The translations under genes and the position numbers were made by a program. A stretch of 64,000 nucleotides of DNA, taken from contig MU008158.1 of the NCBI GenBank assembly GCA_010909165.1, positions 3,435,478 to 3,499,477 of the forward strand, written 5' to 3'. Positions 11,224-36,420 of the stretch are shown here, one piece after another. Under the pieces are notes generated by a model. That model made no database searches. It was given only the letters and a program-made list of their open reading frames with translations, and had not been told where the DNA came from. The stretch is from Anthoceros angustus (Eukaryota; Plantae; Anthocerotophyta). How positions within the stretch are numbered: the first letter of the stretch is position 1; the number at the start of each line of letters is the position of its first letter.

Positions 11224-14200
11224 TTAGCGCAGTACACCTACTATGGCCATGGGCATACCTTCCTCACAGAAAGGAAACATGGTCCCTTCCCAGACATCGT
11301 CGCCTGCCTCACCTTCATTCTCCTCACTTTTACTCTGTGCATCCGTGCTTTCACCATCATCTACAGTCACACTATTTTCTGCACATCCGCTGCTTGCTAG
11401 AGCTTCCCCCTCAACACCATTCACATCATGTCTGGAGTTGTTCAAACAAAAGCTGTTGCCCACCTCCTGACTCAGATCGCCTAAGGACTGCATCTGCACC
11501 ACTGGCGGTACAATCCCTTCCATATCCTTCCAACAGTCTGGACCCTTTTCACCTGGCAGCGTATCTAATCCTTCACTACGGCCATACGTACCATCAAATA
11601 CTTGGCTGACGACTCCTTTCTGCTCCTTAGATCCTTCATCTCCCTCTACATGAGCTACACAGTGTATACTTTTATTATCAGCAGCCTCAATCGCTTCCAA
11701 CACAACATCCCTATGGAGATCTCCTAAGAGCAGCTTGTTGGTATAATCCCCCTCCATGGAGACCCTCAAACTTGACAGGTTGTAAACACCAGATACACCC
11801 ACCTCCTGTCGCCCGAACCTTGGAATATCCATAGGTGGAGAACCACTAGCTGCTGCTGCATCCTCACGGGTATGAACTGGTAATGAGAAGGTCTGCTCAA
11901 AATAGTTTCCATTAGCAGTTGGAATTAACCCTGGCACAAGCAATTCCAAGGTGTCCAGCGAAGCAGGTCGCTCATGCCGGATGTCTTGAAAGTAAGGAGG
12001 AGATGAGTCCCGTGATGATGGAGTCCCTGCCGCTGATGTGTCAGGGGAATCTGCAAGAAAATTGACAAGAGGGTGTTAGACAAGCCTTGCACTACCAGTT
12101 CCAGACTAGCATGTTTTGCAGACACCATCCTGACAGTTCAGAGGACTCCAACAACCCAAGCCTCCAGCGCTAGGAGAGCCAATGGCTGCCATAATTACAG
12201 AATATGGTTTGCACCTCCCACAGAGTTGTCTACAGTCAAGCACCGAGAGACACTCACTCCGGTTCACTTCGAGGACTTGGATAAACAATCTCTAGTTCAA
12301 TGATCAATACCACGAGCATGGGGAATACAGCTTGCTGGGATATGAAGCTCCCTGGGTTGACAAGTTTATCAAGCGGTCTGAAGCAGGTGTTGAAATTGAA
12401 CCTTGATAAGCTTGATGGAATCCATTCAACCCACCATTGGCTCCAAATGGACCTCCTTCAGAGCCAAAACTGCTCCCACTACTTGTCCTCTGTATTTCAG
12501 GGCCACTTGAATGAAATGCAACCCTTCCATCTTGTATACCTCCTTCCTCAAGTAAGTGCATTTGCAAAGCTGAAACTCCAGGCAAGTTGTTGACACTCAT
12601 CTCCCTAGCAGGTGCAATTCAATTGCTTAGATCTTGTTGTGAACACAACTTGAGCAAGCATTTACAGCACTACATCATGCATTTACCTGTGTCCCTGAAT
12701 CTTAGTGAAATTCGACAGTCTTTCCATCACAGGGACCAAGTCCTTCCTTCGAACTTCAATGACCTTCGTAGGGAATGTCTCAATCTCTAGGTCATCGTCA
12801 GCAATCTCAGAAACCTCATCAACGGTCTGTTTCCCAGCTGCCAACATGACATGGAAATGCACCTGCACATGGAGAAGGTATCATGTCTGTGACACTATCA
12901 TACTCAGCTGCAGGGCAATGAGCAATGGAAGGGCAATAGACCTATACCTTCGAGCTTGCCCAGACAGGCAGTGTCCTAGCATGGTGCATTTGTACTTCAG
13001 CATTGGACATGAACCGCCGTTGCATCTCTTCTGTCGTAGCACCTTCCTTCCCAGAAATCTTGGAGAAGACATTTTCATAATCTAGGTCAGGCCCAGCCAA
13101 ACTATCAATATTCTCCTCCCGGTCACCCCAGGTAGGCCTCCGACAAACATCCCATCTTTGTAAAGTATCTACGTTAAGCCTTAATCCCTGTTGTTGACAG
13201 GAACTATTGCTTGCAGCGGTGGCACCAGCCATGCTACCACTGTTATAACCTGCATCCAGAACTGGCAGTGGGTGTAACAGATATCTAAGAAGGTGTCCAG
13301 AAGGTGCAAGAACCCAAAGCTGCTCCTTAAGACTGCCAGCTGATATTTCTGCCTCCTGCATCTGGCTGCCACCATCATGTAAAACAGCTGCCACAGCCCC
13401 TGAAACCACACTGCTTCTACCTGCAGCTACAGCTGCAGCACCGGTAACAGTTCCACGCCAGCCGCCGGGTCCGTTTTTTATCCTGCTAACAACCGAAAGA
13501 GTTACCGGAGGTGGCGGGGGAAGAACAGGCTGTTGTGTTGCCCTTACTGGTCCACTGCTGGACCACCATGGCAACGGTGGTGCAGGTGCAAACGTTGATC
13601 CAGCAGGACCATCTACAGGATACGTGCCATGTGTATGCAAGCCAACCATCCCGCCAAATGGGGAAATTGCAAAGACATGAGTAGTTGCCCGGGATGAGCT
13701 AACAACTACCCAGTGACCATCTCTACTGATACAGATGTCCTGAATAACCTGTAAAAGAGAGAATCAAAATAAGCCATCTCCATATCATGGCTGCCAATTG
13801 TCAATGATAAACAAAGCTCTGACCACTACCAGTAGCACTGGCCCCTCTTAAGATGATCTCGCAACTCTAAAGCAAAAGACACAAGAGGCAGCCAATTACC
13901 GCAGCTGTCATCCCACGGGACAGCTTGTAGAGGTGGACATGGGTTGCGCCAGCATCAAAGCTTCCTGAGTTAGATCCAGTTCCCGGAGAGGAGGGTGTCA
14001 AGCGGAAGACATTTAAATTGTGCCCATGGATAGAGGCAGTCACCAGAAGGGTGCCACTTGGATCAAATGCAAGTGCGGACAAGGGACTCGTATGAGCCCT
14101 GAAGTGAGTCACAAATTTCCTGCTCACAAAATCACGCACAACCACCTGCCACCAAAGATGCCAGACTGAGAACGAGAGGAAAACATGGCTGCCTACATGC

Positions 14201-16110
14201 AAGGTGTAATCAATCACATTCTCATTAACGAAATTGTACTCAATATCCAGCACCAAACCAAAACAGTAAACAGATTACACAGCCGGATTACATAACATGC
14301 CTACCATCTTATCTTCATTCTTAGATTTAGGATTGAAGGGAAAACTTGACTTACAATGCCTGCATGCTCGGGCTCAGGCACTTGACCTCCAGCATGGCCA
14401 TTGACACCATTCTTCCAACTTGGACTGCTAGAACCAGAATTAGTGGCTCCATCTGGAAGCAAGTCAGAGCAATACCGAGACAACGTCTTATATCCCATAT
14501 CACCGAGTGTCACGATCCCAGCAGCAATGTGCTTACTGGACTCTTTGGCATAGTGTGCAACCAAGCTACCACCAGCAGGTGAAGTGGATGGGCTCACACC
14601 AGGAGATGATGTGAGGTGTTGAGGTGAGACTCTTCCCGTGGTGGCCATAAGAGGTTGATTAGCCGCATATGCCAGCCATCTCGGCCCCACTGCCATTGCA
14701 CCATGAGCATTATATGCTGACCCCCCTCCAAGGTGAGATATAGGATATGTCAACACACTGAAAATATTCTGAAGAGTCACTGCATCAAAGCAGTAAATCT
14801 GCAGCCACCGAAGAACACAAAAGTGAGAGACAATTGATGAACACACATACCAAACAGGTTCAATAAGAACAGTAGGCTCCCACCTGGGCATGAAGAGCAA
14901 CAGCAACCACTCGTGAGCTGCAACGGACAGCACAAATGGTGCTTCTGAATCGTAACACATGGACATATGCATGTGTACGCAAGGAATAGAAGCGAACAAC
15001 AGTAGGAAACATAGGGCCATTCCCTCCTCCTGGTGGACTTCCCACACCCCCTCCATACCCTCCAGGAAACCCTCCTGGAACAGCGGTGACACTGTTAGAG
15101 GCATCCCCCGTGACGACCAATAACAAGGGACGTGCTGCTTTCAGCCCCCCCTCGCCAACCTCTTGAACATAAGGCTGTAGGCGTAGGAATGCAACCGGGC
15201 CATCTCGCCGAGAAAGTAGCTCCCGAACATTGTTTGCCTCTTCCACATCCCATACTTGGAAGCCATTCACATAGGTAAGCAGCAATACGCGCCGGGACTG
15301 TGAGGATCCAGTTTCCAGTGAATCAAAACCTGCCCACTGAACCTGCCAGCACATGGAACGAAAATGAGAAAAGAGATCATTTCAAAAAGATTATTTGGTG
15401 ACATTGTCAACATTAGCTTGTCTGGGTGTTGGAAAACAAGTGCACTTGTCGCTTCTGACAGCCTCGTTCCCACGATAAAAACAAGCAAGACATATTTGAC
15501 AATTAGGGTTTCTTGAAAAAAAAAAGGACAATCCTCATGAATTGGGGGAGCCTCAGAAAGCAGTCAAGCGAAACTCAGACAGTTAAATGCCCCTGCATGG
15601 TCCTACCATGAACAATCTCAACTGTCCTGGAGCATACTGCTTCGGCCTCTATACACAGTGAGTCTAGAACTGGAGAAGAATGTCACGCAACAGAAGGCGA
15701 CATGACACGACGATTCTGAATCAAACTACGGAACATTCCAGCAGCATATCCTCAAAATCTGCAAGCGTAAGACCCAAAGTCCGAAGTTTGCAACTACGGA
15801 ATTCAAGTCCAGCTGCTGCAACCTGCAGTCCAATCATGTTAAGTGCAGAGGGACAAACTAGCGCGGACACTAAATTACGGGAGCAATTACGAGTGCGCAG
15901 TACCTGCTCTCGCTGCCTCTCATCTTCCGCCGAAGACACAGTAGATGCAACAGTTGCTCCTGCGGATCGCACAGTAGAGGCGATGGTGCTGGCGTTTGCT
16001 GACACGCTGCGCCAGTAGGTTGAAATTGTCCGGAGTGATGAAGGGAAGAAGCTACCACGGCCTGTGCCCCCTCTGGGACTGCGAGCATGCAAAGCAGCAT
16101 CGTTCCTCAT
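11224..16110 (-). CDS. ATG18: Autophagy-related protein 18 f/g/h-like (WD40 + BCAS3 domain), multi-exon
   Basis: SSLRTISTYWRSVSANASTIAS; QVQWAGFD...LLLTYVNGFQVWDVEEANNVRELLSRRDGPVAFL; MAVGPRWLAYA; HFRAHTSPLSALAFDPSGTLLVTASIHG; HLYKLSRG; SNAEVQMH; EIETFPTKVIEVRRKDLVPV; MFPFCEEG. The true stop may lie in a further short exon after a donor near 11259. Confidence 0.92.
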
Positions 16111-17461: not shown

Positions 17462-18982
17462 TGTCACGGATCCCACGAGAGACTCTATATGCGAGCACGT
17501 CATCATCAACCTCCTAGGCTGGGCGGCGGAAGGATGCGCAACCAGCAAGACTCACAAGTACTCTCCTATGTAAGACGGCCATGTTTTCATCCCCCTCGCC
17601 CTTGAGACTCATGAGGCTATGTGCAAGTACTTCTCTAGGTTAATTAATGAGTGTTCAAAAGCCTATCATAACCACAGGATTTGGAGGGGCCTCCCCCTTT
17701 TCTTTAATGGTGGCTTTCTTTCGCCGGGGGTTTCCATAGCTCTGCAGAAAGCGCTGGCTAACGCTGTTTATAGGACGGCTACGTACGCAGGACTAGCGGC
17801 TTCTTCGGCTCTGGTGGTAGGTAGGCCCTTATCATCCCTGATCACGATATCATTGGTGCAGTAGGTAGTTACGGGAAAGGCATTCGAGAGGACTAGGACT
17901 TTCCTTTTTACTATTAGCCCTTTTTGGGTTGTTGTGGAACATAAAAGTTTGGGCACTCCTATTTTTTGAATCAAAAAGGATCAAACTAGAGCAAAACTGG
18001 AGCAGAGCTGAAGCAAACGGGAGAAGTGGAAGAGAATTGTCAGAAGATCTTGAGGCAATTTGTTGGAGAATGAGGAGTAGAGGGTGAAGGCAACTAAGCC
18101 AAGGAAGTAGCTTGAGGTTGCTGCACAAGCAGCTGTTGATAGGCTTGCAGAGGCAAAGGCTTGATATTTGGGGACCACCACCAAGTTTGAGGGGAAGGCA
18201 AAGTAACTTGCCGCACGTGTGGAAGAAGTGAGACATGGGTAGGTGCTCATATTGCTGAGATTTTGCAGTAAGGAGGACTGTTAGGTAGAGATGTGTGGCA
18301 AGGGTTGCTGCAGGAAGATGGGCCAAGTGCCCGTAATAGTGGAATTGTGCATGATCTATTGCAGGGCTCTAGGTTGGGAGCTCAGCATGCGAGAGAGGAG
18401 CAGCAATCGGTGCAAGGATGGGAGCGAGGAGCTCATGTTCAGGGTGATCAGCCACAAGAGGAGGCCATGGCGGTGCCGAGGCACGTGGAAATGCTCTCCG
18501 TGGAGTCAAGATGTGAGGATGGCATGATAGGGCCATGTGTTGAACTAGGAAAGGCCGTGGTAGAGCACTCACGGCAGGCTGAATTTGTAGCTGGGCTGCA
18601 AGATGGAGGTGTGGCAAAACCACAGAAGGCGTGTGCGGTGGGGCAACATGGTGAAGGAATCACAACGGGGTGTGCATCATGACCGCAGAATTTGCAGTGG
18701 GGCTGCAAGTCAAAGTGAAGGGAGGCCGTTGTGGTGGCCGCGATGAGAATTGGGCAACAAGGAGGGTTGATACGAGATGTTGGTGAGGCGTGAGGAGTTC
18801 ACTAGGGAATAAGTCCAATTTATTCATATTGAGTGTTGCGCACAACCAACTTGGGTGTGTTGGACAATGAAGCCTAAGAACTCTAAAACACCCAACTGGA
18901 CAATGAAGACTAAGAACTCTAAAGTTAAGCACCCTAGGGGTAGATCAATGTTGAGATGGGGTGCCTTTTGTGTAAGGTGTTT
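17462..18982 (+). mobile_element. Old degenerate transposon-derived sequence (continues at 24198-24609 once the nested insertion is removed)
   Basis: Stop-riddled coiled-coil-like reading at ~17980-18250 (EVAAQAAVDRLAEAKA*...), a 36-bp repeat at ~18862-18925, and LTR-like words TGTCAC (17462) and GTGACA (24609) without a matching TSD. Confidence 0.45.
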
Positions 18983-21900
18983 TGTGGCACGACTTTCGCT
19001 GACGGCCAGCCAGGCGCGCACAATCCCGTGTCGTTGTAGGAAGGAGTCCGTTCCCAAGGGAATGATAGGCTCCGTTTGCCGCGTTTCAGACGATTCTTAC
19101 TTCACTTTGCGTCCGTTCAGTCTCAACGCACACATTCATCAGTTCGCATCTAACTACTCGCAACGTTCACCGCACAGGCCCGGTGTGGCCAAACGTTTAG
19201 GGACCCGTTCGCGTCCGTATCGTTCACGTTCGTCACTTGCACCTCTAGTCCGTTCTCTCTCACACTACACTCATCAGCCTTAGGGAAAAACGCGGGGGCT
19301 ACACAGTCCGGACCTCCTCCGTCGTTCTGCCGGGCCTCTCCGTCCGGGCTCTACACGCCCTCCCGGAGTTCCTCCGGCTCACACGTTCCGGTCCGTTCGG
19401 CCGGCTGCTGCGGACGAACACGGGTCCCCAGTCACCCTTCCTGCACACACCACCACACGTTAGGGTCCGTCACCAGAACCTTGATCAGTCTCTCCGGGTA
19501 TCGTGCACCTTTCGATGACTCGGGACTCACGTTAGCAAGAAGACGACAAGTGCGCAGAGCGGCATCAACACCAAGAGAAGATACTTTACTTAGGCGACCT
19601 CGGCCCTCTTATACTACGCCGAAGGTCGGCGCCTTTATTACACCCTATTACGGGCGGTGGCTCTAGGTTGGGAGCTCGGTCGCCCTAATCGGCCGCCTAC
19701 CATCCTATTCCTCCCCTCCTATCTCCTTCGTCGGCGGTGGGGCTGGGAAGGTCCCGGGTTCCGCCTCGGGATTGGTGGTCCAATCTCCCGGCGATTGCGG
19801 CGCAATCGGATGATCCGGCGGACCCCTTCCTCTTCCGGAATCACAGCCGGGTTGGGCTCGGCGGTCGGCGACCGTTACCTGTCGTCCCCACAGCCCCGGT
19901 GGGTCCCCTTCGGTGGGGGCCACCCTATGCTCCCCAGCGTAAGTCGGAGGGACTCCTCCTTACTTCTGAGTCGGACCTCGAGGTCCGGCCTCGACCCGAG
20001 TCGGAACTTGAGTCGCCCCTTAGTCGGTCTGGGTCCGGTCTCATCTGGGGTTCGGACCTCGGTCCGAACTTATTCAGTCCGGTCCCAAGCTCGGACCCCT
20101 TCGCGGACCTCTTACTGCTAGGTCCTCATCCCTTCCCACCGACCCTTGTCTTGGGTCGGTTTGGCTTCCTCCTTCCGCTCCCCCTTCAAGGCCGCCGCCT
20201 CTATCTTCCCGAGCAGGTTGCAGCGGACTTACCCTGGGATTCGTTGTATTGGCCGCGTCCTGCTCCTCCTGATGCTCTTCTCCCCCGCTACCGTCGTCTC
20301 CAAACAGGGCCACTAGAGTCCCCGTGCTGTCCCCATGCCCTTCATCCCCTTCTGAGCCTTCCAGGGGTCCGTCTATTTGTAGCGGGGAGGCTTCAATGCT
20401 TAAGGAGCTCGGCGTGGTAATAGGCAAAGTCCGAATCAACTTCTTTGGATTGCCTCTTCCACGTGTGCGGAGCACCGATACTCCCTTGGTGCTCGGGAGG
20501 TGGCGTCTTTGCCCCTTGTTGGACCACCTCCCTGCCGGGTTTGGGTGGGCGGGCCGTATCACGCGAGGCTACAAGCGCCTCGGTCACCTCACCGCTTGTT
20601 GTTGCTCACTTTGCTCCGGCTCCGTCGTTTCGCTCGTTGCTAGCTTACCGCCATAGCGCGCTCCTTCCGCCTTTCTTAAGCGGACGGCGGCTTCTTTTAC
20701 CGTCCAGTGCTCTCGCTCCTCCGTTCATTCTGGCCGTTAACTCCGCCATCTCCCTCTCCAGGCGGTCGGGCAACTCTGCCCGATTGCGGGCCTCGCCCAG
20801 GTCCTTCTCCATTTCGGCGACGTCCTGCTCCCTGTTCCATCGCCTTACTTCCTCCGTCCGCCAACAGAGCTGGAGCCGCTCTATTTCTCGTTCGTGATCC
20901 GCGATCACGCCCTGCAGATTACCATTCCTCTCAATGGTAACTTGGAGCTGCAGCTCCAGAGTCTCCTTGCGGTCTTCCATCTCCTGCCGCTGGCGCTCCA
21001 CCTCACGCAACTGAGACCGGAGATCCTCCATCTCCTTGCCGCGTGCTTCCTCCTCCTCGGCATGGCTGGCCCGTACCTGCTCCGCCGCCTCCTGCTCCTT
21101 CTTCAGGTTAGCCGCAGCTATCCCTGCCGTCTCCCTCCACCGGTTCCGATCACGCCGATAGTGATCACGATCGGTCTTAGCGGCGACCGCCTCCCCTTCA
21201 AGGCCCCGCCTCCTCGCCTCCTCCTTGGCGTTAGTCGGTAAGGCCGCCTCCGCCAGGTCACGAGCCTTCTCCGCTTGCGCCCGGGCCTCCTCTGCCTCCT
21301 GCTGCGCTACTCCTCTCCGCCTGCAGAGGTCTTCAGCCCGTGCTTGGGCCTCCTCTGTGCTGTTGCTCACCCGGTGAAGGAATTTAGTCAGTCTGTCGGA
21401 TGGACGGACTTCCCTCTCGGCCTCCTGCGTTTCCCTTCTTGATGCGGCCGAGCTTGGCCTCCTCCTTGCCTCTGGGCCGCCTCCAACCGCCTCCTCGGAG
21501 GAGCACCATCGCCTCGGGTGGCTTCTACTTCACAGGTCTTCTCGGCATCCCGAGACCCCAAAGCATACCGTCCATGACGGTAGCTGTGACCCCGTGTTTC
21601 TTCCACGGCCGCCACCGTGAGACCCCACAAAGTCCGTAGTGGGAGGCGGGCATTTCACGGTCCGCCAAGGACCTCCATACATGATCCGGAGTAAGTCGGG
21701 GGTTCTCGGACCTAATCGGGGCCCTTAGGTCTGAGTCTTGGCTCGAGCTTCACCCTCCTTGGCCCTCTTGGCGTTCCTTATTTGCCCTCTTCGTCACAGG
21801 GCTCGGAGGGTGAGGGGTCGGGAGCTAGCCCTTTTGCCCTCTTCGTCACAGGGCTCGGAGGGTGAGGGGTCGGCCCCCACCTCGGGCGCCCGCTCGATCT

Positions 21901-24192
21901 CTCCCTCCTTGGCGGCGTCCCTTCGCCCTCCTTACGCCTCTTGACCTCTTGCCACTCAGGTGGGCGGGGGAGACGAGCCGTCCCGAGGTCTTTGCGTTGT
22001 AGCATCTTGCGCCTCTTCGGTTCCCGAGTCCGGGCAACTCTGCCCGTGCGGGCCTCTGGGCCGCCTCCTCGCCTCCGCTCATTCCGCCGCCTCCTCGTTC
22101 CCTCCTGCTGCGTTGATTGCTCCGGAGGAGGCACCAGGAGAAGGGAAGCGGGGATTTCTTCCCATACTTCCCTGGGTGGTGAGGGGGTCCGTTCCAGACG
22201 TATGGAGTCCGGAATCCCTCGATCGTCCTCCTCCGGGTCCGTTTGGCCTTAGGGGTGGCCCCCACCTCGGGCGCCCTTGCACGCCTCCGCTTCCTCCGGC
22301 CGGGCGCCGCTCGATCTCTCCCTCCTTGAGCTCGAAATGTCCCCATACATGGATCGGTATGGGGCGGTCCAATGAGGCTTCTCGCTCCTCGGCTGCGGGC
22401 CTCTGGGCGCAGGCGAAGATAATCCTTCCCAGTCGCCCTCTTCCCAGCGCGCATGCGGGAACACCAACAAATTATCACCAAGGTGATCCACCTTGGTGAG
22501 CAAGTTCCAATGGACAATAATCGGGCTCGGCCTTACTCGGCATCCGGCGGTCGATATCAACCACCGTTGGTTGTCCTGCGTTCGAGCCTCGGCATCCTTG
22601 TTGCGGCCCTATCTTTCCCTTCGCCTTGAGGGGCTCTGGGACTACGCCCCCATCTTCCTCCTTTGGGCGGTTGTAGGCCGCCCTCAGGACCTCCAAGGTC
22701 CATCGCCTGAGATCCTCCCGGAGGTTCTTGGACCGAACCTCCTTGTTGGCCGCCAACATCTTCCGGGCGAACTCCCGGACGGTGACATCAAGCGTCCGAC
22801 TGGAACACGTCTAAGTGCCACTCCTCGACTAATCCTCCCGCTTCCTCCAGCCAGGGCCCAAAGTCCGGATAGCGCCGGGTCACAATGTTGCGCTCTACGG
22901 GTTCCATGGCTCCCGGACCTCCGCAGCCTTTTGGGTGCCATCGCCTTCTTCTCCCCCCTTCTTTGGCGCTGGCGGCGGAGTCGCGGCACGATCGCCCTCT
23001 TCCCCTAGCATGCGGGAACACCGGCAAATTATCACCAAGGTGATCCACCTTGGTGAGCGTGTTCCAATGGACAATGATCAGACTCTGACCCTTACTCGGT
23101 ATCCGGCGGTCGATATCAACCGGCCGTTGGTTGTCCTGCGTTCGAGCCTCGGCATCGCCCTGCGGCCTCTATCTTTCGCCTTGAGGGGCTGCGGGACTCG
23201 CCCCCATCTTCCTCCTTTGGGCGGTTGTAGGCCGCCTCGGGACCTCAAGGTCCATCGCCTGGGATCCTCCCGGAGGTTCTTGGACCGAACCTCCTTGTTG
23301 GCCGCCGCCAACATCTTCCGGGCGAACTCCCGGACCAGAGTGACACTGTCAAACGTCCAGACAGCCTGGAACACGTCTAAGTGCCACTCCTCGACTAATC
23401 CTCCCGCTTCCTCCAGCCAGGGCCCAAAGTCCGGATAGCGCCGGGTCACAATGTTGCGCTCTACCAGGTTCCATGGCTCCCAGACCTCCGCAGCCTTTTT
23501 GGGTGCCATCGCCTTCTTCTCCCTTCGTTGCTGTAGCTGCTGGCCGGAGTCCGCTGGCACGATGCGCCCTCTTCGCCGCGTTCGCTGCTCCAACCCCGAC
23601 GGTGAGCCGCGAAGATGCTGGCGTTCAAAGAGATAGCGCCAGAGAGCCGGGTTGCGGGCGCAAGCTGCGAGGTGTCTCGAGGCGCGGGACCTCCTCGTCG
23701 GCGCCGTTGGAAGTAACCGGGGCGGAAGGCGCCTCTTCCACTGTCGTAGCGCGATGCGCGCACTCGACCTTACGCCCGCTTACTCGACCTTACGCGCGTA
23801 CTGCGGCCTTCGCCGCGGCGTGAATACCGCTATAACGGCCTCCGCCGCCCGGCCTCGCTGCATGCCCGACCTCCACTCAGGGCCGTCCACGTGGCGCCGC
23901 TAAGTCTGTCCTCACGACTCAACTTCTAAGTTACTTTCCCTGGCGTACTTATCCTGTTTTGACCCGGAGTGGGGTCCGGACTTATCCCGTTACACCGGGC
24001 GTGGTCCGGATCTCGCCATAGTGGTACCGGGGTCCGTTACCCACTCCGGAGTCCGATGTATACTCCGGAGTCCAGTCCGGAGCGCCATCCGTGCTTATTC
24101 CTGCTGTTCCGCCTTATTTTACTATTCCAACCTACCAAAAAAAACTAAACCCCACCTAATTCCTACCCCCCAAGGGAAGTCCATAGTCCACA
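18983..24192 (-). mobile_element. Copy A (5210 bp) of a TG...CA-bounded, ORF-carrying element (putative giant solo LTR)
   Basis: Ends TGTGG (18983) and CCACA (24192), flanked by the TSD TGTTT (18978-18982 / 24193-24197). Homologous end to end, in inverted orientation, to 25577-30343. Frameshifted ORF starts MAPKKAAEVWEPW at ~23509. Confidence 0.9.
22451..23575. repeat. ~557-bp internal tandem duplication in copy A covering the ORF start and N-terminal domain
   Basis: GCATGCGGGAACACC...AAATTATCACCAAGG recurs at 22451 and 23008. Both units encode VERNIVTRRYPDFGPWLEEAGGLVEEWHLDVFQ. Confidence 0.85.
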
Positions 24193-24211
24193 TGTTTCAA
24201 CTTGTTATATT

Positions 24212-24387
24212 TGCAGAAGTCACATGGGAGCTAATTGGGAGAGTGTTTAGGTGGTGCAGAAGTCACATGGGAGCTAATTGGGAGAGTGTTTAGGTGGTGC
24301 AGAAGTCACATGGGAGCTAATTGGGAGAGTGTTTAGGTGGTGCACAAGTCACATGGGAGCTAATTGGGAGAGTGTTTAGGTGGTGCA
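24212..24387. repeat. 43-bp minisatellite x4
   Basis: AGAAGTCACATGGGAGCTAATTGGGAGAGTGTTTAGGTGGTGC at 24215, 24258, 24301 and 24344 (last copy with one mismatch). Confidence 0.95.
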
Positions 24388-26280
24388 CCCTACGCAGAGC
24401 AGGTACATGGACAGGTTAAGGTGACAAGGGTGACCCTATATAAGTAGGGCAGGGGTCCCTGCATGTACGTATGTGGGTAGGACGACACCTTGTAGGTAGT
24501 AAGTAGGGAGTAAGTAGGGGGAGCGCTTTACATGTGGACGGGTAGAGACATGTAGGACGTAGGGAGTGGAGAGGTCTCCCTACGTGGGCAGCGGAAGTGG
24601 GGTGTGACACCCTACTTGGATACCTTGGGAAGCAAATTTTCCATATTAGGCAGGTTCCAACCTAGGAAGTTGCTAAAGAGGATTGCATATGCAAGGTACA
24701 AACCTAGGAAGTTGTTAAAAAGGACGGTATAAATAGAATATATTAGAAATAATAGAACATAAATATGTAAGGTAGGTAGTGTAGGGTGCTTTTAACATGT
24801 AGGGCTGCTAAATAGAGGACGGTGGAAATGGTGCCACATGGCAAGGAATCAACGGCCTATATCAAGGAGTTTCACTGTCACTACCAAGGGCCATGCAAGC
24901 TGGGTGTGTAGGGAGTAGCACCCGGGAAGCCTGCGAGGAATCGCGAGGAAGAGCTTGTGCATGCAAAGGGAAGCTAGGGCAAGGACTTGGTGAGAACGCG
25001 GTGCTCATGTGTGTGCAAGGAGAAGGAAGGATGGGCCTTGGAGAATAGAGGGATGCGAGAACAAGTCCGACAATTGGTGTATGCCGTGGCGATGGCCAAG
25101 AAGGATGTAAAGGAGGTCCAGGGCCTTGCGAAGACTAAGGATGACTTATTAAATGGTAAGGACCTCGAGGTAGGAGAATTGAGAAGGGAGAAGGAGACCC
25201 TACAAGAGTCATGGGACTCCCTCCAAACAGAGTTAGAAGAAGCCAAGGGGGCTATGAGTGAAGCTAATCGTAAGGCCTCACAAGAGGAAGAGAGTCGCAA
25301 GAAAGCTGAAGACATGGTACGTCGCTTGATGGTTGTGCGCAAGAGAAGGTTCAGAGCCGATCATGCCTTGCAAAAGAGGATGTTGAGGCGCGTCCATGAT
25401 ACGGAGAAGAAGTATCACGCTATGTCCATACAAGTGGGGCAGTTGGCTATGGAAAGGGAGGCTTTGCAAGTGAAGTGTGGGACGGGCGAGTGGCCTGCAG
25501 ACTTGGAAGATTTGAAGAACAAATATCGCAACCTACAGGTTAATTCGGCCAATAGACTGGCTAGGATCAAGGCTGATGTGGACCACAGATCCTCCCCGGG
25601 GGTAGGGAATGAGTTAGTTTTTGTTTTTTTTCGTAGGTAGGGAGTGCAAAATAAGGCGGAAAGGAAGAAATAAGCCCGAACTACTCCGGACTGTACTCCA
25701 GACTGCACCCCGGAGTAAGGACTCCGGAGTAGGTGGAAGGACTTCGAAGCACACTTAGGAGGAGGACCGGACAACGCACCGGAGTATTGGGATAAGTCCG
25801 GGCCACACTCCGTGGCAGGACGGGATAAGTACGCCAAGTAAAGTAACTTAGAAGTTGGAGCGTGATTTAGGCACGGCCACGTGGGCGGTCGAGTGGTGGC
25901 GGGCATGTAGCGGACCCAGACCTTGAGTTGCCAGGCGGGGTCCGGTATTCACGCCCGTACAGTTTGCGTGAGGCTTAGAGTATCGTGGCGAAACTTAGAG
26001 TAAGCGGCGTAAGGGCGGTGGCGGGCGTAAGGTGGGAGTAGGCCATGCGACCTCAGCGATTCTGGCGGGACACCCTTCCGCCTCCGCGACTACTCCCGAC
26101 GCCGCAACCTCGGAGGAAGACCATTTCTCTTTGCGACCTGCAACGATTTTCGCGGCTCGCCGCCATGGCGCTATCTCTTGGCGCTGGTACCTTCTCGCAG
26201 CTCACCTTCGTGGTTGGGCGGCGCGGGAGAAGAGGAGCGGAGCGGATTGCGCCGAGCGGCGGAGCAAGAAGAAGGCGGTG

Positions 26281-29200
26281 ATGGGACCCAAGAAGGCCGG
26301 GAGGTGTGGGAGCCTTGGCGCCTAGTGGAGCGCAACATTGTCACCCGGCGATACCCCGACTTCGGACCCTGGCTGGAGGAGGCAGAGGACTTGGTAGAGA
26401 AGTGGCATCTTGACATCTTCAGCGCGGTGTGGACGTTCGACAGTGTCACACTCGTCAGGGAATACGCCAAGAAGATGCTGGCCGTCGCCAACAAGGAGGT
26501 CCGCTCCAAAAGTTTGAGGGAGGACCCCAGGAGGTGGACCGTGGAGGTCCTGAGGGCGATTTACAACCGCCCGGCAGAAGAAATTGGGGGCGTAGTCCCG
26601 GAGCCCCTCAAGGTGAGAGGAAAGGTAGAAGCGGCGAAGGCGGCGCTATTGCGACCAGGGACGCAGCGGTCGTCAAACGGCTGGCTGATGTCGGACCTGC
26701 TGGACAGACGGGTGAGGGCAGTGGCTAAGGTCATTGTCCATTGGAACATGCTCACCAAGGTGGATCACCTTGGTGATAATCTTTTGGTGTTCCTGCACGC
26801 CCTACAGCGGGGCAAACGGGCCGACCGGGGGCGTATCATCCTCGCCCGAATCAGTCAAGAGGCGAGAAGCCGCCTCCGTCGGCGATGTCCCCCTTCCTAA
26901 TCCATGTGTGGGGATACCTCAACCTCCTGAAAGAGGGAGAAGAGGAGCGGGCGCTCCGGAAAGGATTGGCGGCCTTGCCGGAGGCAGAGCGGGAAGGGGC
27001 GAAGGCACCCGAGGCGGAGGCCCGACCTCCTAAGACCAAACGAGCCTGGGAGGAAGATGACTGGGAGGGAATTCCGGACTCCATCCGGCTGGAACGGACC
27101 CCCTCGCCGCCCCGAGAGGTATGGGAGGATATCCCTGCCTCCCTCCTTCTGGTTCCGAAGGCGGAGTTGCCCGCACCAAACGGAGCACCCACGGGAGGAG
27201 GCGGCGTTGGCAACGCCCGCCACCGAGAAACCGCCATGTGAGCACGCCAAGCGAGTTGTCAAGAGGTGGAAGGTGGCACCCACCAACGAAGCACCAAGAA
27301 GCGCACCAGTGCCTCTACCCTTGCCACCGAGTGGCGGAGGCGAAGAAGGCGGAGGCGGAGAGAGACGCCGCCTGTGGGCGGGATCACCGCGCAGCCCACA
27401 TCCGGAGCTCCGCCCCTCCTCCGACGGGAGGGGAAAGCAGCGGACTCCGGACCCCTCGCCACCAAGCCCAAAACGAAGACGGCGATGAGCCAGCGCCAAA
27501 CGGGCCAAGGAGGTAGAAGGCGGACCAGGCATCCAGGACATGAGGGTCTGATCGGTCCCGAGGCGAGTCCGGACTCACCGGATCTGCAGCGGTCCTTGAC
27601 GGACCGGGAGATGCCCGCCTCGCCGACCGGGTATCTCCTCAGCACCGTGGAAGAAACACGGCGAGTTTTGGCTACCGTCATGGACGGTATGCTTTGGGGT
27701 CTCTGCGGGATGGCAGAGAAGACCCAGAGGTGGAGGCAACAAGGAGGCACATGGTGCTCCTCCAGGAGGAGGTGGAGGCGGCCCAGGAGGCGAAGAAGAA
27801 GGCGGAATCCCTCGCTCGAATCGAGGAGGGAAAACGCCGTGAAGCAGAGCGGGAGGTCCGGTCTATTCAGCAAGACCTGACCAAGGTCCTTCAGCTGTGT
27901 GAACAGCTGAAGCAGGCACAAGAGGCCCAAGCTCGGGCAGAAGACCTCAACAAGCGACGGGAAGCGGCGTAGGGGGAGCTGGAGGAAGCCCGAGAGCAGG
28001 CGGAGCGGGCTCGAGACCTGGCTGAGGCGGCTAGGTAGGAACAACGCCAAGCCGCGGAGGCTCAGGTGAAGGCGGCGCGTGAGGCGGAAGCCGCAGCTAA
28101 GACCGACCGAGATCACTATCGGCGGGATCGCAACCTGGAGGAGGCAACAAGGAGGCGGCCAACCTAAAGGAAGGAGGCCGGAGCAGTGCACGGGCCACCG
28201 AAGAGAAGGAGGCCAGCAACAAGGAGATGGAGGATCTCCGGGCTCAGTTGCGGGGAGTGGAGGAACATCGGCAGGAGATGGAAGACCGCAAGGAGACCTA
28301 GGAGCTACAGCTCCAAGATACAATTGAGCGGAGCGGGGCTCTGCGGGGCGTGATCGTGGATCACGAGCAGGAGATAGAGCGACTCCAGCTCTGTTGGCGG
28401 GCAGAAGAGGTAAGGCGGTGGAACAAGGAGCAGACCGTCGCCGAAATGGAGAGGGACCTGGACGAAGCACGAAATCGGGCAGAGCTGCCGGACCGCCTGG
28501 GAAGGGAGATGGCGGAGCTTCAGGCCAAAATGAACGGAGAAGCAAGGGCCTTGGACGCAGAAAAGAAGCTGCTGGTCCAGTTGAGGAAGGCGGAGGGAGC
28601 CGCGTCCTGGCGGGAAAGTTGGCGTGAGCGGAGAAGAAGGCGGAGGCGGAGGGAGCACGGAGGTTGCAGGAAGTATGAGCGCCTTGTGGCCTCGCGATCT
28701 GCCTCGGCCCACCGGTGACAAACTGGCAGGAGAGACGGACCGGAGTCGAGACCGGACCACTCTCGACCGGAGCACCTATGGCGAAGGGAGTATCGGGTGC
28801 TCCGGGCGCATGTGGAGGAGGCAATCCAACAAATCGACTCGGATGTTGCCTACTACCACGCTGAGCTTCTCAAGGCGTTGGAAGCTTCACTCATAATCGA
28901 CCAGACCCTCGGAAGGGTCGAGGAGTGGAAGGGGAAGAAGGGCATGGGGACAGCGCTGGGGCCTTGGTGGCCTTGTTTGGTGATAAGGGCAGCGGTGAAG
29001 AGGAGCCCCAGGAGGAGCAGGACACGGCCAATGTAACGGACCTTGAGGTAAGTCCGTCGCAACCAGCCAGGGGGGATAAGGATGAGGGCCCCGAAAGATG
29101 TGGGGAGGCAGGAAACCAACCGGACCCAAGCCAGGGAAGGGACCGGTGAGTGAGGACGGGCCCCTAACAGTAGGCGGTCCGGGGATTGGGGGTCCGGAAC

Positions 29201-29601
29201 TTGAGGACCGGACCCTGGTAATAAGGTCGGACCTTGAGGTCCGGACTCTGGAAATAAGACCGACTCCTGAAGATCGGACCCCGGAGTCGAGACCGGACCC
29301 CGAGGTCCGGACTCAGGAGGAGGGAGGGAGTCAGCCCCGACGTGCTCAGGAGGAGCCGTCAACTAGTGGCCTTACAAGGCATGGACCCACTCGAAGGACG
29401 GGAGAAGAGGATGTGGTGGTTACCGTGGTCGTCCAACCGCCACCGGTAGCCCAACCCGACAGGATATCGGGAAGGGGAAGGGGTCCCACCTCGCGGATCA
29501 TCCGATTGGGTGCGCCGCAGCAGTCAGGGCAAGGAGTGGGGCCATCGGCGCCGAGGCGGAACCAAGGGCATCCCCAGGCCCACCGTCGACGACGGAGATA
29601 G
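26281..29601 (+). CDS. Element-encoded ~1100-aa protein (frameshifted in this assembly): globular N-terminal domain, Pro/Glu-rich linker, long coiled coil, low-complexity tail
   Basis: Consecutive ORF fragments, each mirrored in copy A: VWEPWRLVERNIVTRRYPDFGPWLEE...SVTLVREY...DPRRWTVEVLRAIYNRP...MSPFLIHVWGYLNLL; DHEQEIERLQLCWRAEEVRRWN; IDSDVAYYHAELLKAL. Stop at 29599-29601. Confidence 0.7.
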
Positions 29602-29673
29602 GGGGAGGGGCGTAAGATGGTAGGCGGCCGATTAGGGCACACTGAGCTGGCCACCCGCTCAGAATAGGAGTGT

Positions 29674-29704
29674 AATAAAGGCACCGACCTTGGGCGTAGT
29701 ATAA
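29674..29704 (+). promoter_or_regulatory. AATAAA followed by a TATA-like box, conserved in both element copies
   Basis: TGTAATAAAGGCACCGACCTTGGGCGTAGTATAAGAG in copy B; reverse complement GTGTAATAAAGGCGCCGACCTTCGGCGTAGTATAAGAG at ~19606-19643 in copy A. Confidence 0.55.
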
Positions 29705-30697
29705 GAGAGCTGAGGCTGCTCTAGTAAAGTATCTTTCTTTTGGTGCTGATGCCGCGTTCTCTTGCAGACCCTTGTGCGTCTTCTTGATAGCGTGAGTCCT
29801 GTGTCACTGAGCAGGCACGACAGCCCCGGAGAGACTGATCAAGGTGCTGGTGACGGACCCTAACGTGTGGTAGTGTGTGCAGGGAAGAGCGATCAGGGAC
29901 CCTTGCTCGTCCCGAGCAGCGGCCCACCGTCGGACGGACCGGAACGTGTGAGCCGGAGGAACTCCGGAAGGGCGTGTAGAGCCCGGACGGAGAGGCTGGG
30001 TGAGCGAGGAGGTCCGCTGACCACCCGCGTTTTTCCCCAAGGACGATGAGTGTAGTGAGAGTGGTGAGAGGAACGGACTAGAGGAACGAGTGACAAACTT
30101 GAATGATACGGACGCGAACGGTCCTTAAACGTTTGGCCACGCCGAGCCTGTTCGGTGAACGTTACGGGTAGTTAGTCGTAAAACGATGAATGTGTGTGTT
30201 GAGTCTGAAACGGTCACTGCGTGAGGTGAGAAACGATTGGAACGTGGCAAACGGAGCCTATCATTCTCTTGGGAACGGACCCCTTACTACAACGACACGG
30301 GATTGTGTGCGCCCGGCTCGCCGTCAGCGAAAGTCACGCCACAGCTGATCTTGGTAGAGCTTTGAGGGAGAGGTTGACACCCCCCCACAATGATGATAGA
30401 AAGACGCTAGAAGCAGAAGGTTTGAAGGCTGCGGACCTTGTGACCCAAGCAGAGATGGTGGAGTCGATGAGTCGGAATGGGAAGAAATGAATGAGCAAGC
30501 CGTAGAGGATGACTCGGAGGGGGAAGAGGAAGGCATGGAGCAAGATCCGCTCACGGGAGAATTAGTTTTGCTTGAGGGAATTTTAAGTATATATATGTTC
30601 AATTTTATTATGAAGTATGGATCACTTAAGTTCACTTTCCAATATCTTTGTTTCAAATATGATTTGTATCCAAATATCTAATAATACTTCTTGAATA

Positions 30698-31302: not shown

Positions 31303-31903
31303 AGTAACGGCACTGGTGAAATAAGGTAGAAAGGTGAAAAGTTGAAAAAGGTAAAAAGCTAAGTTAGTAGCTGCCCTGTTTAGAAGATGCATGTGTTGCA
31401 TGCTCATGCAATCTCTTGTTAGAGAGGAATTGCTACGCCACAAATGAAGAGCTGCCTAGAGAGGACTCTTAGTGATTAGTGGTCCGTAAGAATCCCTAGA
31501 TTTAACAGCTGCCTAGTTAAGGTCAGTGTGGATATATAAGGGCTAGAGCAAGGGCTTTGAGGAACAAGTTACAAGTGGGACTCACTCTTTGAGAGAGCGA
31601 GCAAGTGTCACTGCAAGCCTTGTGTTGAGAGAGGCTGGAGAGCTAGCTAGTGAGCTTGTCATGGAATCAAGGGCGAGCTGGGCGTAGATAGCCGATTCCA
31701 TCGTTGTATTCTTGTAATAAAGAGCGGCACCTCGAGGAGGTGGCTGCGAGTCGTCGATGGACGGCGGGCTACTTGGAGCCTAGTCGTGTTGTGAGGTTGA
31801 GAGCGTTGAGAATCGTGCAAGTCTCTTGTGGAGTGAATTGGCGAGGTCCTAGACTGGGAAGCCGACTTGGCTTCCTTCTTGGGCTGCGGTGAGGGGTGTT
31901 ACT
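31303..31903 (+). repeat. 5' LTR (601 bp)
   Basis: Starts AGTAAC, ends GTTACT. TATA (GATATATAAG) at ~31531 and AATAAA at ~31716. Near-identical to 36421-37019. Confidence 0.95.
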
Positions 31904-31956
31904 TGAGTGGTATCAGAGCGTAGTCCATTCCTCCGAGTGACTAGAGAGTGCACAAG

Positions 31957-34900
31957 ATGGTCAATGAGAAGCGTAAGGAGAGGCTGAAGAAGCGGCTCCG
32001 ATCATCCGCCTCAACCAAGATTCATCATCGTCGGAACAAGAGGAAGTGAGAGCGCCGAGAGCACAGCCCATCGAGAGAAGTCGGAGGGAAGAAGCGGATG
32101 GTGGAAGTACTTTATCAAGTTCTTCCGGTGTCTTGGACGATGTAATGACTTCAAGGAAGAAGACAAAGCGAATCCAGCCCACACTCAACAAGGCGAAGAT
32201 GCGGAAGAACAACAAGAAATCTTCCGGAATTAGCATCTTCAAAGTGGCTCAAATCGAGCATGAAGCTAGCCCTACCGGATAAGTATGAGGGAGAAAGAGA
32301 TCTGCAAGTCATTGATTCTTGGATCTATTCTATTGAGACTTATCTCGCCTCATCTGGTGTTGAGCCGGAGTACTACTTAGGTACTGTTGGCAATTTCTTA
32401 AAGGGCTATGCTTTGGTCTGGTGGCGAAGTTATGGTGCTAATGTTGCCCAGGGTAACCGAGCACATACCATCACAGACTGGGCATCCTTCAAAGAAGCCC
32501 TCAAGAAGCAGTTCCAACCTGCGAATGCTTCGCGTCTAAGTAGACAGCAGCTTGACAATATCAAGCAAACAGGTACTGTACGAGATTATGTAAGTACCTT
32601 CAGTGAAGCTGTCATGCACTGCACTACCATGAGTGAAGATGACAAACTGCATCGCTTCATGGCTGGTTTGAAGGATTGGGCTGCTAACAGAATTGAGTTG
32701 CATAGTCCAACTACATTGGCAGAGGCCATTACAGCAGCAGATGCCATCCAGATACTTTCCATTCTAGTACATCCAACTCCTCCAGAAGATTTCGAGGCAG
32801 TACCCGTGGTCGGTATGCCCAGACTAGAGGAAGCTCTAGTAGTGCCGCAGAGGAGCTGCTAAGGACACTGGCGGAAATGGAATTGCAAGAGGCAATTCAA
32901 GAGGAAATTTCATGAAGAAATCGAGGAGCAGAGGCCGCGGAGCTCAGAGAACAGTCAGTATGGGTTCTCGAAAAGGAGTATGCTACTCATGTGGAGAGCC
33001 GGGACATTATGCAAATGAATGCCCGAATGCTGAACAAACTCTCAACGTAGCAGAAGGAGATCCACAGCCCCGAAGACTCAGGATTACGGAAGTGGTCGGA
33101 TCCGAGGATCCCAAATGACGGATCGGCCACATGCGAAGGCGCATGTGGTGAGTCTCAGTCTTGAGGGCACTATTCGGAGGCGGGTGGAGAGCTCATGTAC
33201 ATACATGGATGTATAAATGGAGCGAGCGAGGATGTTGCTTGACTTAGCAACAACACATAATTTCATTTCTCCTAGCAAGGCAAGCAAGCTTGGTTTGACA
33301 TGGGCTAGTACATCTGAGCCATGTAGAGTGAAACAAGCTAAAGGAATGCGCAACACAAAGGTGAATTGCAAGAAGTGCCGTTGCGGATAGGGAATTGGAA
33401 TGGAGCGGTGAGCTTCATTGTAGATATGGATGATCATGAAATCATCTTGGGCTTAGAATGGATGAAGGCCAACAAGGTATGTGTGAACGTGGACTCACGC
33501 ACCATACAGATCTTAGGAGATGAAGAGCACAAAGTGAGTTGTGCGTTCTCAAGCGAGGCTTGGAGACAACATTGATGATATCATCTCTAAGAAAAGCTCA
33601 AATGTTGTGTAAAGGATGGAGAGGAACTCTTTTACTTGTCTGCAAGGACTAGAAGATGGTCTTGAGATGGAGTCTCGAGCGAAAGATTCCAAGGAAGTGC
33701 GTCTTGAATGAGTTCAAGGACTTGATGCCCGATGAGTTGCCTCCTTTACCTCCTAGAAGAATTGTAGATCATGAGATTGATCTCAAGCCGTGAAGTACAC
33801 CGCCTTCAAGAGCGCCATATAGATTATCGCAGGATGAGCTACAAGAGTCAAGAGACAGATGTCTAACACCTAGCCAAGGGCTATGTGAGAATCTCAAAGT
33901 CCCCATTTGGTGCGCCTGTTGTTCACGCAAGAAGAATGGAGGATTGAGATTATGCTTGGATTACGAGCACTCAATCGATAATGTGAAGAATTCTTATCCT
34001 TTGCCAAGGATGGATGACTTGTTTGTGATTGAGAGGTGCTAAGTATTTCACCAAGCTGGATCTAATGGCAGGCTATTACCAGATTCGCATCGCAGAAGGA
34101 CATGAATACAAGACGCTTGTAGAACAAGGTATGGATCTTTTGAGTTCCTTGTCATGCCATTTGGACTCACTAATGCACCAGCCACGTTTCAGACTCTCAT
34201 GAATACTATATTCGAGATCATGGATGAGTGTGTTGTGATATACTTGGATGACATCATGATATACAGTTCTACCTTGGAAGAGCATGTCCAACACTTGAGG
34301 AAAGTGTTAGAAAGGTTAAGAGCAAATTCTTTGTTCTTAGCTATAACAAAGTGTGACTTTGTTAAGGAAGAGATAGACTTCCTAGGATTCATTGTCTCGG
34401 ATGGTATCGGGATGGATCCCGATAAGGTAAAGGCCATACTGAGTTGGCTGCCACGAATGTGCACGAGGTGCGTATGTTTTGGGATTGGCTAGCGTGTACA
34501 GAAGATTTGTACCGATGTTTGCCAAGATTGCTGCCCCATTAACGATCTCTTGAAGAAGGCGAAGGCTTGGAAGTGGGATGATGAATGTCGAGGGCATTCG
34601 AGTTCAAGTTGAAACTCAGACTACCCAGATTGGCAATCTATGATCCAAAGAAGGATATAGAAGTATATCGATCGTCGGATATTGCAATTGGCGGAGTGCT
34701 CATGCAAGAAGGTAGGCCGGTGGCTTACGAATCAAGGAAGTTGCATGAACATGAAAGGAAGTACCCACTTATGAAAAGGAGATGATCATCATCAATTGTC
34801 TCAAGATTTGGAGACATTATCTTCTAGGAAGATCTTTTGTCGTACAGACAATGTAAGCACGAGCTTCTTTACAAATCATGCGACTAAGCGCAAGACAAAG

Positions 34901-36400
34901 CTAGATGGCAAGATTTCCTAGCAATGTATGATGTGTCTATCAAGTACAAGCCGGGAAGGAGAATCTCGTGGCGGATGCTTTGAGTCGCAAGCGAGTTTAA
35001 GTTTGATAAGCTCGAAGAGGCCTAAGCTAGCGCAACACGATGGTGATTGAGCCAAGGACACTCACACGCATCAAGGAAGCTTATCTGCGAGATCCATTAA
35101 TCGATTGGATCAATGAAGTGGAGCAACCGGATCTAAGTTTAAGCTTAGAAATGGCTTGTTGATGTTCAAGCAAAAGCAGATTGTGATTCCCGATTCTCAT
35201 GTGTTGAGAAGGAAGTTGCTTGCAGTGTCATGATGTGCCAAGTGCAGTCATAGAGGAATTGACCCAACTTATGAGAAGTTGAGAAAGGCTTTTATTGGCT
35301 GGAATGTACAAGCATCTTGAGTATGTTAAGTCTTGTGTAGATCGCCAGGATAAGGTGGAGCAGACAAATCCGAGGTTTGTTGCAACCCCCCTATTCCAAG
35401 TGGGCCTTGGAAAAGTATATCAATGGATTTCATTATGCCATTGCCACCAAGAATGGACACACTATCATGACGGTGGTTGATAGATTCAAGCAAGCACACT
35501 TCATCCCTACAAAGAAGCGGTGAAAGCTTAAAGTTGCTCGATTGTTCAAGAAGCATGTATATGTGTTACATGGACGCCTATGCATTGTGAGTGAGAGATC
35601 CCAGTTCTGCGAGTTTTGGCAACTTATGAAGAGCTTAGGAGTGCAATTATGTATGAGCACGGTACCACCACCACGGATGGATCAACAGAGAGGGTGAAGA
35701 ATCCAAGAAGAATACTTACGACACTATGCGGATGGACCGGTGACGGAGTAATCATCTTGAGGATGCAATTTTGTTATAATAACATACATAGCTCCACGGC
35801 TACACACCTTTTCGGATGACAGTAACGAAGCAATGGACGTAGTTTCCATGTTGAATGCTAGCGTGTTGAGACAGCGAGAGAACCACGTGAATTCATTGAG
35901 CGATTAAGGGCGGGCATGAAGTTGCTAAGAAGATATTGGCCAAGGCTCGGGGCAGCAAAAGAAGTTTCTTGGCACAGCAAGAGGCGAGTTTCAAGTAGGA
36001 GACAAGGTGTGGGTGAAATTGAAGAATTTCCCACTACCACAAGGTGACCTCAAAGTTAAGGCCTAAGTATGGAGGACCTTTCGTAGTTCAAGCGCATTGG
36101 AAATGTGGCTTACAAACTACTGAATGGATCTTCTCTCATAATGTGTTTCATGTCTCTTTCTTTGAAACCATTTGTGATTTCGAAGAGAATGAAGATATGA
36201 ACAGAAGGATTATGTCATCCCGGTTCAACACAATCATGGTCTGCGGAGATTGTTGAATTCTGGCAGAGAGAAGTGCCTCTGTCGTGGTAATGTACCAGTA
36301 TCAGGCTTCGTGGTTATGCAGATCCTGCGGGTTTCACTTGAAGATGTGCAACAAGGATCATGGATGATCTCGCGTTACCGGAGGTCATTGAGGACAATGA
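31957..36400 (+). pseudogene. gag-pol polyprotein, heavily frameshifted in this sequence
   Basis: Gag (LPDKYEG...WASFKEALKKQF...IKQTGTVRDY), zinc knuckle CYSCGEPGHYANEC (~32980), protease remnant (LLD..THNFIS), RT (MPFGLTNAPATFQ, YLDDIMIYS), RNase H (IGGVLMQEGRPVAYESRKL), integrase (TDGSTERV, KLRPKYGGPF). Order PR-RT-RH-INT is Ty3/gypsy. Confidence 0.9.
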
Positions 36401-36420
36401 CATCTTCCGATGGGGGAGAG

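Follow-up and report, generated by a model that had tools for sequence, protein, structure and literature searches.

Two insertions of a gene-bearing mobile element, probably giant solo long terminal repeats, in the hornwort Anthoceros angustus

Introduction

What kind of mobile element has the short ends and target duplication of an integrase-inserted long terminal repeat (LTR), and yet devotes most of its length to a single long gene? The question is raised by two homologous units in a 64,000-nt stretch of contig MU008158.1 of the hornwort Anthoceros angustus (hereafter the window; all positions are window coordinates). Unit A (18983–24192, minus strand, 5210 bp) and unit B (25577–30343, plus strand, 4767 bp) both run from TGTGG to CCACA, and a preliminary description took them for giant solo LTRs that encode a protein. 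As detailed below, both the element and its orphan gene are real, whereas its identity as an LTR is likely but not proven.

Results

Both units (2/2) have 5-bp inverted ends, TGTGG/CCACA, and a 5-bp target-site duplication (TSD) of their own: TGTTT at 18978–18982 and 24193–24197 around unit A, and GCTGA at 25572–25576 and 30344–30348 around unit B. Such combinations are not rare, as 4 of 1774 TGTGG/CCACA pairs tested came with a 5-bp repeat, against 1.7 expected by chance. A and B are real insertions nevertheless, because their ends fall exactly on both limits of the A–B homology and because a reading frame is restored once B is taken out. This frame belongs to an unrelated coiled-coil open reading frame (ORF) outside the unit, which is split by B (24978–25576, plus strand), resumes in frame at 30349 and fixes the boundaries of B; when the unit and one TSD copy are removed, the interrupted frame runs on for 46 codons across the empty site. 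Two separate integrase-type insertions are thus supported, as the preliminary description had proposed from the TG...CA ends and the perfect TSDs. The homology between the units spans their full length, with 74–79% identity in the five main blastn blocks, and A and B are two long-diverged subfamilies of one element. A pairing of A with B, as the LTRs or the inverted repeats of a single element, was rejected, since the two face apart, are 25% different and have separate TSDs.

The gene of unit B occupies 26281–29615 (plus strand). From the ATG at 26281 to a stop found at the equivalent place in both units (29613–29615 in B, 19707–19705 in A) it comprises 1112 codons, or 70% of the unit; in unit A it extends from ATG to TAG over 19705–23509 (minus strand). 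The ORF of about 1100 codons that had been said to fill some 70% of each unit stands as a selected span and not as an intact frame. The assembly holds no intact ORF: the longest sense stretches free of stops measure 289 aa (B) and 294 aa (A). A codon-aware alignment of the two requires roughly 22 frameshifts for B and 28 for A, together with five to six stops in each (all counts approximate).

In eight gap-free blocks (418 codons), the proportion of synonymous differences (pS) is 0.51, the synonymous rate (dS) 0.86 and the non-synonymous rate (dN) 0.14, giving a dN/dS ratio of 0.16. Ratios of 1.19 and 1.36 were obtained in the remaining sense frames and of 1.33 and 1.39 in two antisense frames, with 0.35 in the antisense frame that shares third positions. 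The blocks were picked by protein similarity, which biases the ratio towards low dN; a full-length alignment of 596 codons yields 0.26. The first 80 codons are the most constrained part (0.05). Differences at codon positions 1:2:3 are distributed 66:62:144 in the eight coding blocks, compared with 15:11:16 in five non-coding blocks. Judged by these patterns, the coding region is a true gene under purifying selection.

Behind the stop lies a conserved non-coding 3′ end, the putative end of U3 followed by R and U5 (29616–30343, plus strand, 728 bp in B; 18983–19704, minus strand, in A). The two units agree here at 606 of 700 aligned bases (87%) and at 91 of the last 100, compared with 245/314 and 236/312 in the 5′ part and 49% at synonymous sites. 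This gradient in the direction of the gene, from 76–78% at the 5′ end to 87–91% at the 3′ end, fits the order U3-R-U5. Synonymous sites that are 51% different (dS 0.86), a dN of only 0.14 and a well-conserved 3′ end indicate that the gene and the 3′ end have both been held by selection over a long replication history.

The preliminary description had also placed an AATAAA and then a TATA-like box behind the ORF, and both are present in A and B. Within 29671–29707 (plus strand), TGTAATAAA (29671) and the TATA-like GTATAAGAG (29699) are identical in both units; AATAAA (29674) and TATAAGAG (29700) are common to both copies. A TGTAA stands 29 bp ahead of the TATA in each copy (in A, TGTAA at 19642 and TATA at 19613), and this is the only TATAA common to A and B on either strand, B having none on the opposite strand. 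Donor-like motifs, GTAAAG at 29724 and GTGAGT at 29792 (29723–29799, plus strand), are kept in both units, as is an acceptor-like T-tract with TAG/GT that lies 50–60 bp inside the 5′ end (25624–25638, plus strand, in B; 24144–24130 in A), the function of all of these being putative. The conservation of the acceptor-like site suggests that the gene may be read from a spliced RNA made only by the full-length element, and not from every solo LTR as a self-contained gene, as the preliminary description would have it. The 5′ non-coding region (25577–26280, plus strand, in B) is marked by TCCGGA/CCGGAC-type words, of which the first 250 bp hold 14 in A and 11 in B, and the stretch ahead of the ORF yielded no TATA. 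A 140-nt window in this CCGGA-rich region folds better than shuffled sequences (23953–24092 in A, z −4.2; 25677–25816 in B, z −2.5; the best of 14 windows each), and folding at the 3′ end is not unusual (z −2.1 to +2.1, 14 windows). Rfam models gave no match at E ≤ 0.5 over 16000–38000, and ARAGORN predicted no tRNA. A relic polypurine tract (PPT) was considered in the purine-rich stretch where the gene ends but is not supported, as each unit contains seven purine-rich runs of 13 or more.

The claim that the units lack terminal repeats, a primer-binding site (PBS), a PPT, reverse transcriptase, integrase and a DDE transposase motif agrees with several comparisons. The first and last 700 bp of each unit have no direct or extended inverted similarity (scores 17–24, shuffle means 21–22), and inspection of the four flanks revealed no PBS-like or purine-tract sequence. 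Six motifs for reverse transcriptase, protease, zinc knuckle and integrase gave only four isolated matches in 12 frames, three of them on the non-coding strand, and a Pfam search of the units returned no enzyme domain. The rest of the window holds nothing that resembles the units except short chance matches. Pattern searches for related loci elsewhere confirmed 0 of 590 and 0 of 23 matches; a 22-nt end pattern found five metagenome loci, all alike in those 22 bases only, and no viral or prokaryotic ones.

The breaks in the gene resemble sequencing errors at sites open to methylation, of the kind present in the neighbouring Ty3/gypsy element (31303–37019, plus strand). Between the two LTRs of that element there are 20 substitutions and 21 indels over some 590 bp, and CG or CWG sites account for 16 of the 21 indels (P = 3e-5) and 14 of the 20 substitutions (P = 4e-4), against a background of 31%. 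Errors at methylatable sites are characteristic of nanopore sequencing of methylated DNA, and the units look methylated in the sequenced tissue. Hornwort transposons are described as carrying CG and CHG methylation (PMC10952607). The GC content of the units is 61–62%, and the observed/expected ratio of CpG is 0.88–0.94 compared with 0.64 in the rest of the window, a difference that CWG miscalls may inflate. While the repeats of the window are rich in errors, a MACPF gene at 59875–61700 aligns unbroken over 612 residues.

Unit A further contains a tandem duplication of about 568 bp at the start of the gene (22433–23574, minus strand), not mentioned in the preliminary description, which covers the ATG region and the N-terminal domain and has the same 10-bp word at its junctions (23574, 23002 and 22443). 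Its removal would reduce the unit to about 4.64 kb. The duplication is recent or an assembly artefact, because the copies differ by 22 substitutions and 15–17 indels, with 21 of the 22 substitutions at CG/CWG sites.

The predicted protein starts with an N-terminal domain of about 220 residues (26281–26930, plus strand), its most constrained part, which is predicted at low confidence to be all-helical and has no database match. The linker that follows (26931–27750, plus strand), rich in prolines and charged residues, contains two short conserved blocks and leads to a coiled-coil region of about 300 residues with heptad bias (27760–28650, plus strand), and a short conserved helical block, an acidic stretch and a low-complexity tail extend to the common stop (28776–29615, plus strand). 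In the A protein, the longest clean coiled-coil stretch, likewise with heptad bias, measures 220 aa (20699–21358, minus strand). No transmembrane helix was found across the six sense frames (maximum 19-residue Kyte-Doolittle value 1.44), and thus nothing that would mark an Env-like protein. A 198-aa N-terminal piece yielded no homologue among 3557 and 895 candidates, no match in 1.84 billion representatives and no usable match in the ESM Atlas, and the N-terminal piece matched nothing in PDB sequences or NCBIfam. N-terminal pieces, which are short and contain read errors, matched no Pfam family at E ≤ 1 or E ≤ 10 with HMMER filters that drop weak matches. The coiled coil retrieved generic coiled-coil clusters only, and no DDE or tyrosine-recombinase domain was matched in Pfam, NCBIfam or PDB. 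Two AlphaFold2 models are all-helical and unreliable (pLDDT 46.5 and 44.4); Foldseek with the first, a model too poor for a negative to count, returned nothing at E ≤ 0.001. The tryptophan pattern of the N-terminus presumably recalls the plant mobile domain, which Pfam did not confirm. We predict a soluble coiled-coil regulator, probably nuclear, and not an envelope protein or a transposase.

The units lie in a transposon nest that spans roughly 16400–37000, behind host genes recognised by Pfam at 3354–3842 (plus strand) and 11200–15400 (minus strand), which comprise BOP1-like and BCAS3/WD40 (ATG18-like) pieces. Four near-perfect 43-bp tandem copies (24212–24387) begin 20 bp from the 5′ end of unit A. 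The ORF interrupted by unit B (24978–25576 and 30349–30600, plus strand) has an acidic stretch behind it and a TATA-like CCCTATATAAG upstream, near 24435, and is probably the gene of another, unclassified repeat; a search for the ends of this repeat, which hosts A and B, gave only chance-level pairs of terminal inverted repeats (TIRs) and TSDs. The Ty3/gypsy element has LTRs of about 600 bp with AGTAAC...GTTACT ends rather than TG...CA, a TCTAT TSD, a gag match in Pfam and the PBS TGGTATCAGAGC four bases behind the 5′ LTR. AGT-type ends have been described for the insect Zam clade (PMC3601003). With its different ends and no similarity to the units, this element was rejected as their mobilising partner. 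Elsewhere in the window, a 1.76-kb tandem duplication at 40034–43562 has 98.8% identity, with four substitutions and 14 indels, mainly of 1–2 bp, that fall for the most part in runs of one base or of dinucleotides; it arose recently or is an artefact of the assembly. The CAD1-like MACPF gene (minus strand, 612 codons) forms one uninterrupted frame against its relatives and is thus intronless here; its flowering-plant relatives have introns. The protein is 58% identical to that of Diphasiastrum, 57% to Marchantia and 56% to Selaginella. A tree of 19 rows, none of them a named hornwort, joins it to a single protein and keeps it apart from all the lycophytes, liverworts, mosses, fern and seed plants sampled, which points to a seed-free land plant and, by exclusion, to a hornwort as host.

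Discussion

On balance, we regard each unit as a probable solo LTR, arranged U3(gene)-TATA-R-U5, of a giant Ty3/gypsy retrotransposon with an accessory gene of about 1100 codons in its U3. This arrangement is preferred because there is no known way for a lone unit without a PBS or PPT to rebuild its ends, a problem that does not arise for a solo LTR. A full-length element, with two LTRs of about 4.7 kb around gag-pol, would have integrated with a 5-bp duplication, and recombination between the LTRs would have removed the interior to leave a single LTR flanked by the duplications. Genomic RNA would be driven from the 5′ LTR by the TATA behind the stop, the 640 bp beyond this TATA being R-U5. 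The gene would be read from the 3′ LTR copy, either from an internal promoter or after splicing that joins a donor close downstream of the transcription start to the acceptor-like site near the beginning of U3. By the splice route, the R-region donor of the 5′ LTR would be joined to the U3 acceptor of the 3′ LTR, and solo copies would then be silent; alternatively, a promoter in U3 would serve, as in the sag gene of mouse mammary tumour virus (MMTV). The encoded protein would act as a soluble, coiled-coil and probably nuclear regulator for the element, and our guess, by analogy with the accessory proteins of the Tat group, is that it helps the element most likely against silencing.

Several published properties of plant LTR retrotransposons are in keeping with this model. 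TSDs of 5 bp are reported for 93.4% of them, and the LTRs of non-chromoviruses reach about 5 kb (PMC6317226); those of Ogre measure 1.9–6.5 kb (PMC6431247), and an orchid Tat element of 6425 bp is counted among the giant plant LTR sizes (PMC9289625). Solo LTRs come from recombination, to which long LTRs are more prone (PMC7251063). LTR anatomy as set out in PMC3601003 includes short inverted ends, an R-U5 better conserved than U3, a conserved plant TATA and, in some clades, a TGTAA before the TATA, and the units have sequence features that correspond to all four, their R-U5 being putative. The TATA, the 3′ conservation gradient and the LTR-size precedents thus fit the earlier proposal of giant solo LTRs; a paired copy, which would complete it, was not seen in the window. 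By size and architecture the element is probably of Athila/Tat type, and Tat elements occur in hornworts (PMC13468544).

The closest counterparts are the OTA solo LTRs (Athila, Tat, Ogre), which have TG...CA ends, a 5-bp TSD, a length near 5 kb, a TATA and a conserved 3′ end. They differ in that these LTRs are taken, in the accounts consulted, as non-coding, with extra ORFs placed internally, whereas 70% of A and B is one selected gene. The protein itself resembles the extra ORFs of Retand/Grande/RIRE2 (TRP28 plus Smc-like) and the plant mobile domain and Athila-ORF1 proteins, with a small N-terminal domain, a proline- and charge-rich linker, a long coiled coil and neither enzyme nor transmembrane helix. 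In the accessory ORFs of Retand a small domain is combined with Smc-like and polIII-gamma/tau-like regions (PMC11963269), the Grande accessory protein is nuclear (PMC7264820), and host relatives of the plant mobile domain of Gypsy elements act in silencing (PMC5418596); the accessory genes of Athila/Tat are heterogeneous and mostly without known domains (PMC6317226). Unlike the gene described here, these ORFs are located ahead of gag or in the interval from pol to the 3′ LTR (there often in antisense), and they belong to flowering plants; our protein has no Pfam match to their domains. MMTV sag, a U3 gene with its own promoter (PMC9412291), is likewise upstream of the main promoter and carried by every LTR copy; it differs in belonging to an animal retrovirus and has no sequence relation to the units. 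LARD and TRIM elements share the absence of gag-pol enzymes and the integrase-type ends, but they keep two LTRs, a PBS and a PPT. The units have no terminal direct repeats, PBS, PPT or hammerhead (Rfam), the hallmarks of intact LARD, TRIM or retrozyme elements. The MMTV LTR and the sag gene are much shorter than the units and their gene.

A number of observations weigh against the solo-LTR reading. The window shows the units in no paired arrangement and with no gag-pol, PBS or PPT, and its only recognised gag-pol element has AGT...ACT ends and no similarity to them. That both copies are solo is possible for LTRs, but is also expected of an element without LTRs. Because no protein homologue was found, the Athila/Tat assignment is drawn from size and architecture only, and the Pfam models for the plant mobile domain, Athila ORF1 and Transposase_28-type proteins did not match. 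The accessory ORFs of Retand are antisense and internal, and Retand is not reported outside flowering plants (PMC11963269). The proposed role against silencing is a guess, set beside units that look methylated in the sequenced tissue. The splice sites are motif matches only, and each unit has four ATGs upstream of the gene, some before the acceptor and others between it and the gene. AATAAA is not the usual poly(A) signal of an LTR, because it precedes the TATA rather than following it.

Unlikely, but the least unlikely of the alternatives, is the possibility that each unit is a complete, LTR-less, non-autonomous single-gene element, with ends cut and pasted, or copied, in trans by the integrase of another element. 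The borrowed integrase would act through the 5-bp ends, and the conserved 728-bp 3′ end would hold priming or packaging signals; this would be a wholly new kind of mobile element, old enough to have formed subfamilies at a dS of 0.86. Such an origin would suit two copies that are both single units with perfect TSDs, a collinear layout common to subfamilies so far apart, and the strong non-coding constraint at the 3′ end. It is harder to reconcile with the lack of any PBS, PPT, terminal repeat, Rfam RNA or tRNA able to regenerate both ends, with a 3′ end whose folding is not unusual (z −2.1 to +2.1), and with an outward TATA 640 bp from the end, which is sensible in an LTR and has no evident role otherwise.

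We consider it distinctly unlikely that the units are solo LTRs running in the opposite direction, with the gene a swallowed antisense accessory ORF of Retand/Grande type, or fixed deletion derivatives of a larger element. TG...CA ends are symmetric and do not fix a direction, and in Retand the accessory ORFs that contain Smc-like regions are as a rule antisense (PMC11963269); yet the sole TATAA common to both copies is on the gene strand, B has none on the other strand, and the better-conserved end lies behind the gene. The two ends of a unit also lack homology to each other, so that they do not represent two parts of a normal pair of LTRs.

It appears quite improbable that the units derive from an integrase-like DNA transposon (Ginger, Tdd or GingerRoot) as non-autonomous forms with a cargo gene, or that they are DNA transposons with an unrecognised transposase. 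These transposons have TG...CA-type ends and cargo genes and are present in a seed-free plant, Tdd-4 and Tdd-5 make 5-bp TSDs (PMC2836005), and GingerRoot, found in a clubmoss, measures 4–13 kb and carries gene fragments (PMC6839031). They have, however, an integrase-like transposase, TIRs of 40–270 bp and mostly 4- or 6-bp TSDs (PMC6839031, PMC2836005), whereas the inverted repeat of A and B ends at 5 bp, with further inverted similarity at the shuffle level, and the N-terminal domain is all-helical by low-confidence prediction, the rest of the protein being mostly coiled coil or low complexity. Finally, an origin of the long gene as a side effect of GC-rich repeats or of errors in the assembly, as 20–30 breaks per copy, the lack of a homologue and the choice of dN/dS blocks by protein similarity might suggest, is hardly credible given the codon-position skew relative to non-coding blocks and an ATG region and stop common to A and B.

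In the mostly open-access literature available to us, we found no description of a plant element whose LTR contains a long gene, and the reviews among it place extra ORFs internally. If the units are indeed LTRs, a plant retrotransposon keeps a gene of 1100 codons in its terminal repeat, and recombination between LTRs, the main deletion route of the host, spares that gene intact. In our judgement, pipelines for finding LTRs seldom look for ORFs within them. If the units are not LTRs, they would point to a transposition route without described precedent. To our knowledge, no function has been established for the accessory genes that plant retrotransposons carry, and a family that deposits its gene at each solo site would provide a direct test of action in trans, for example against silencing, and of the way in which such genes turn into host genes. 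If true, the model would explain long orphan coiled-coil ‘genes’ in the annotations of seed-free plants.

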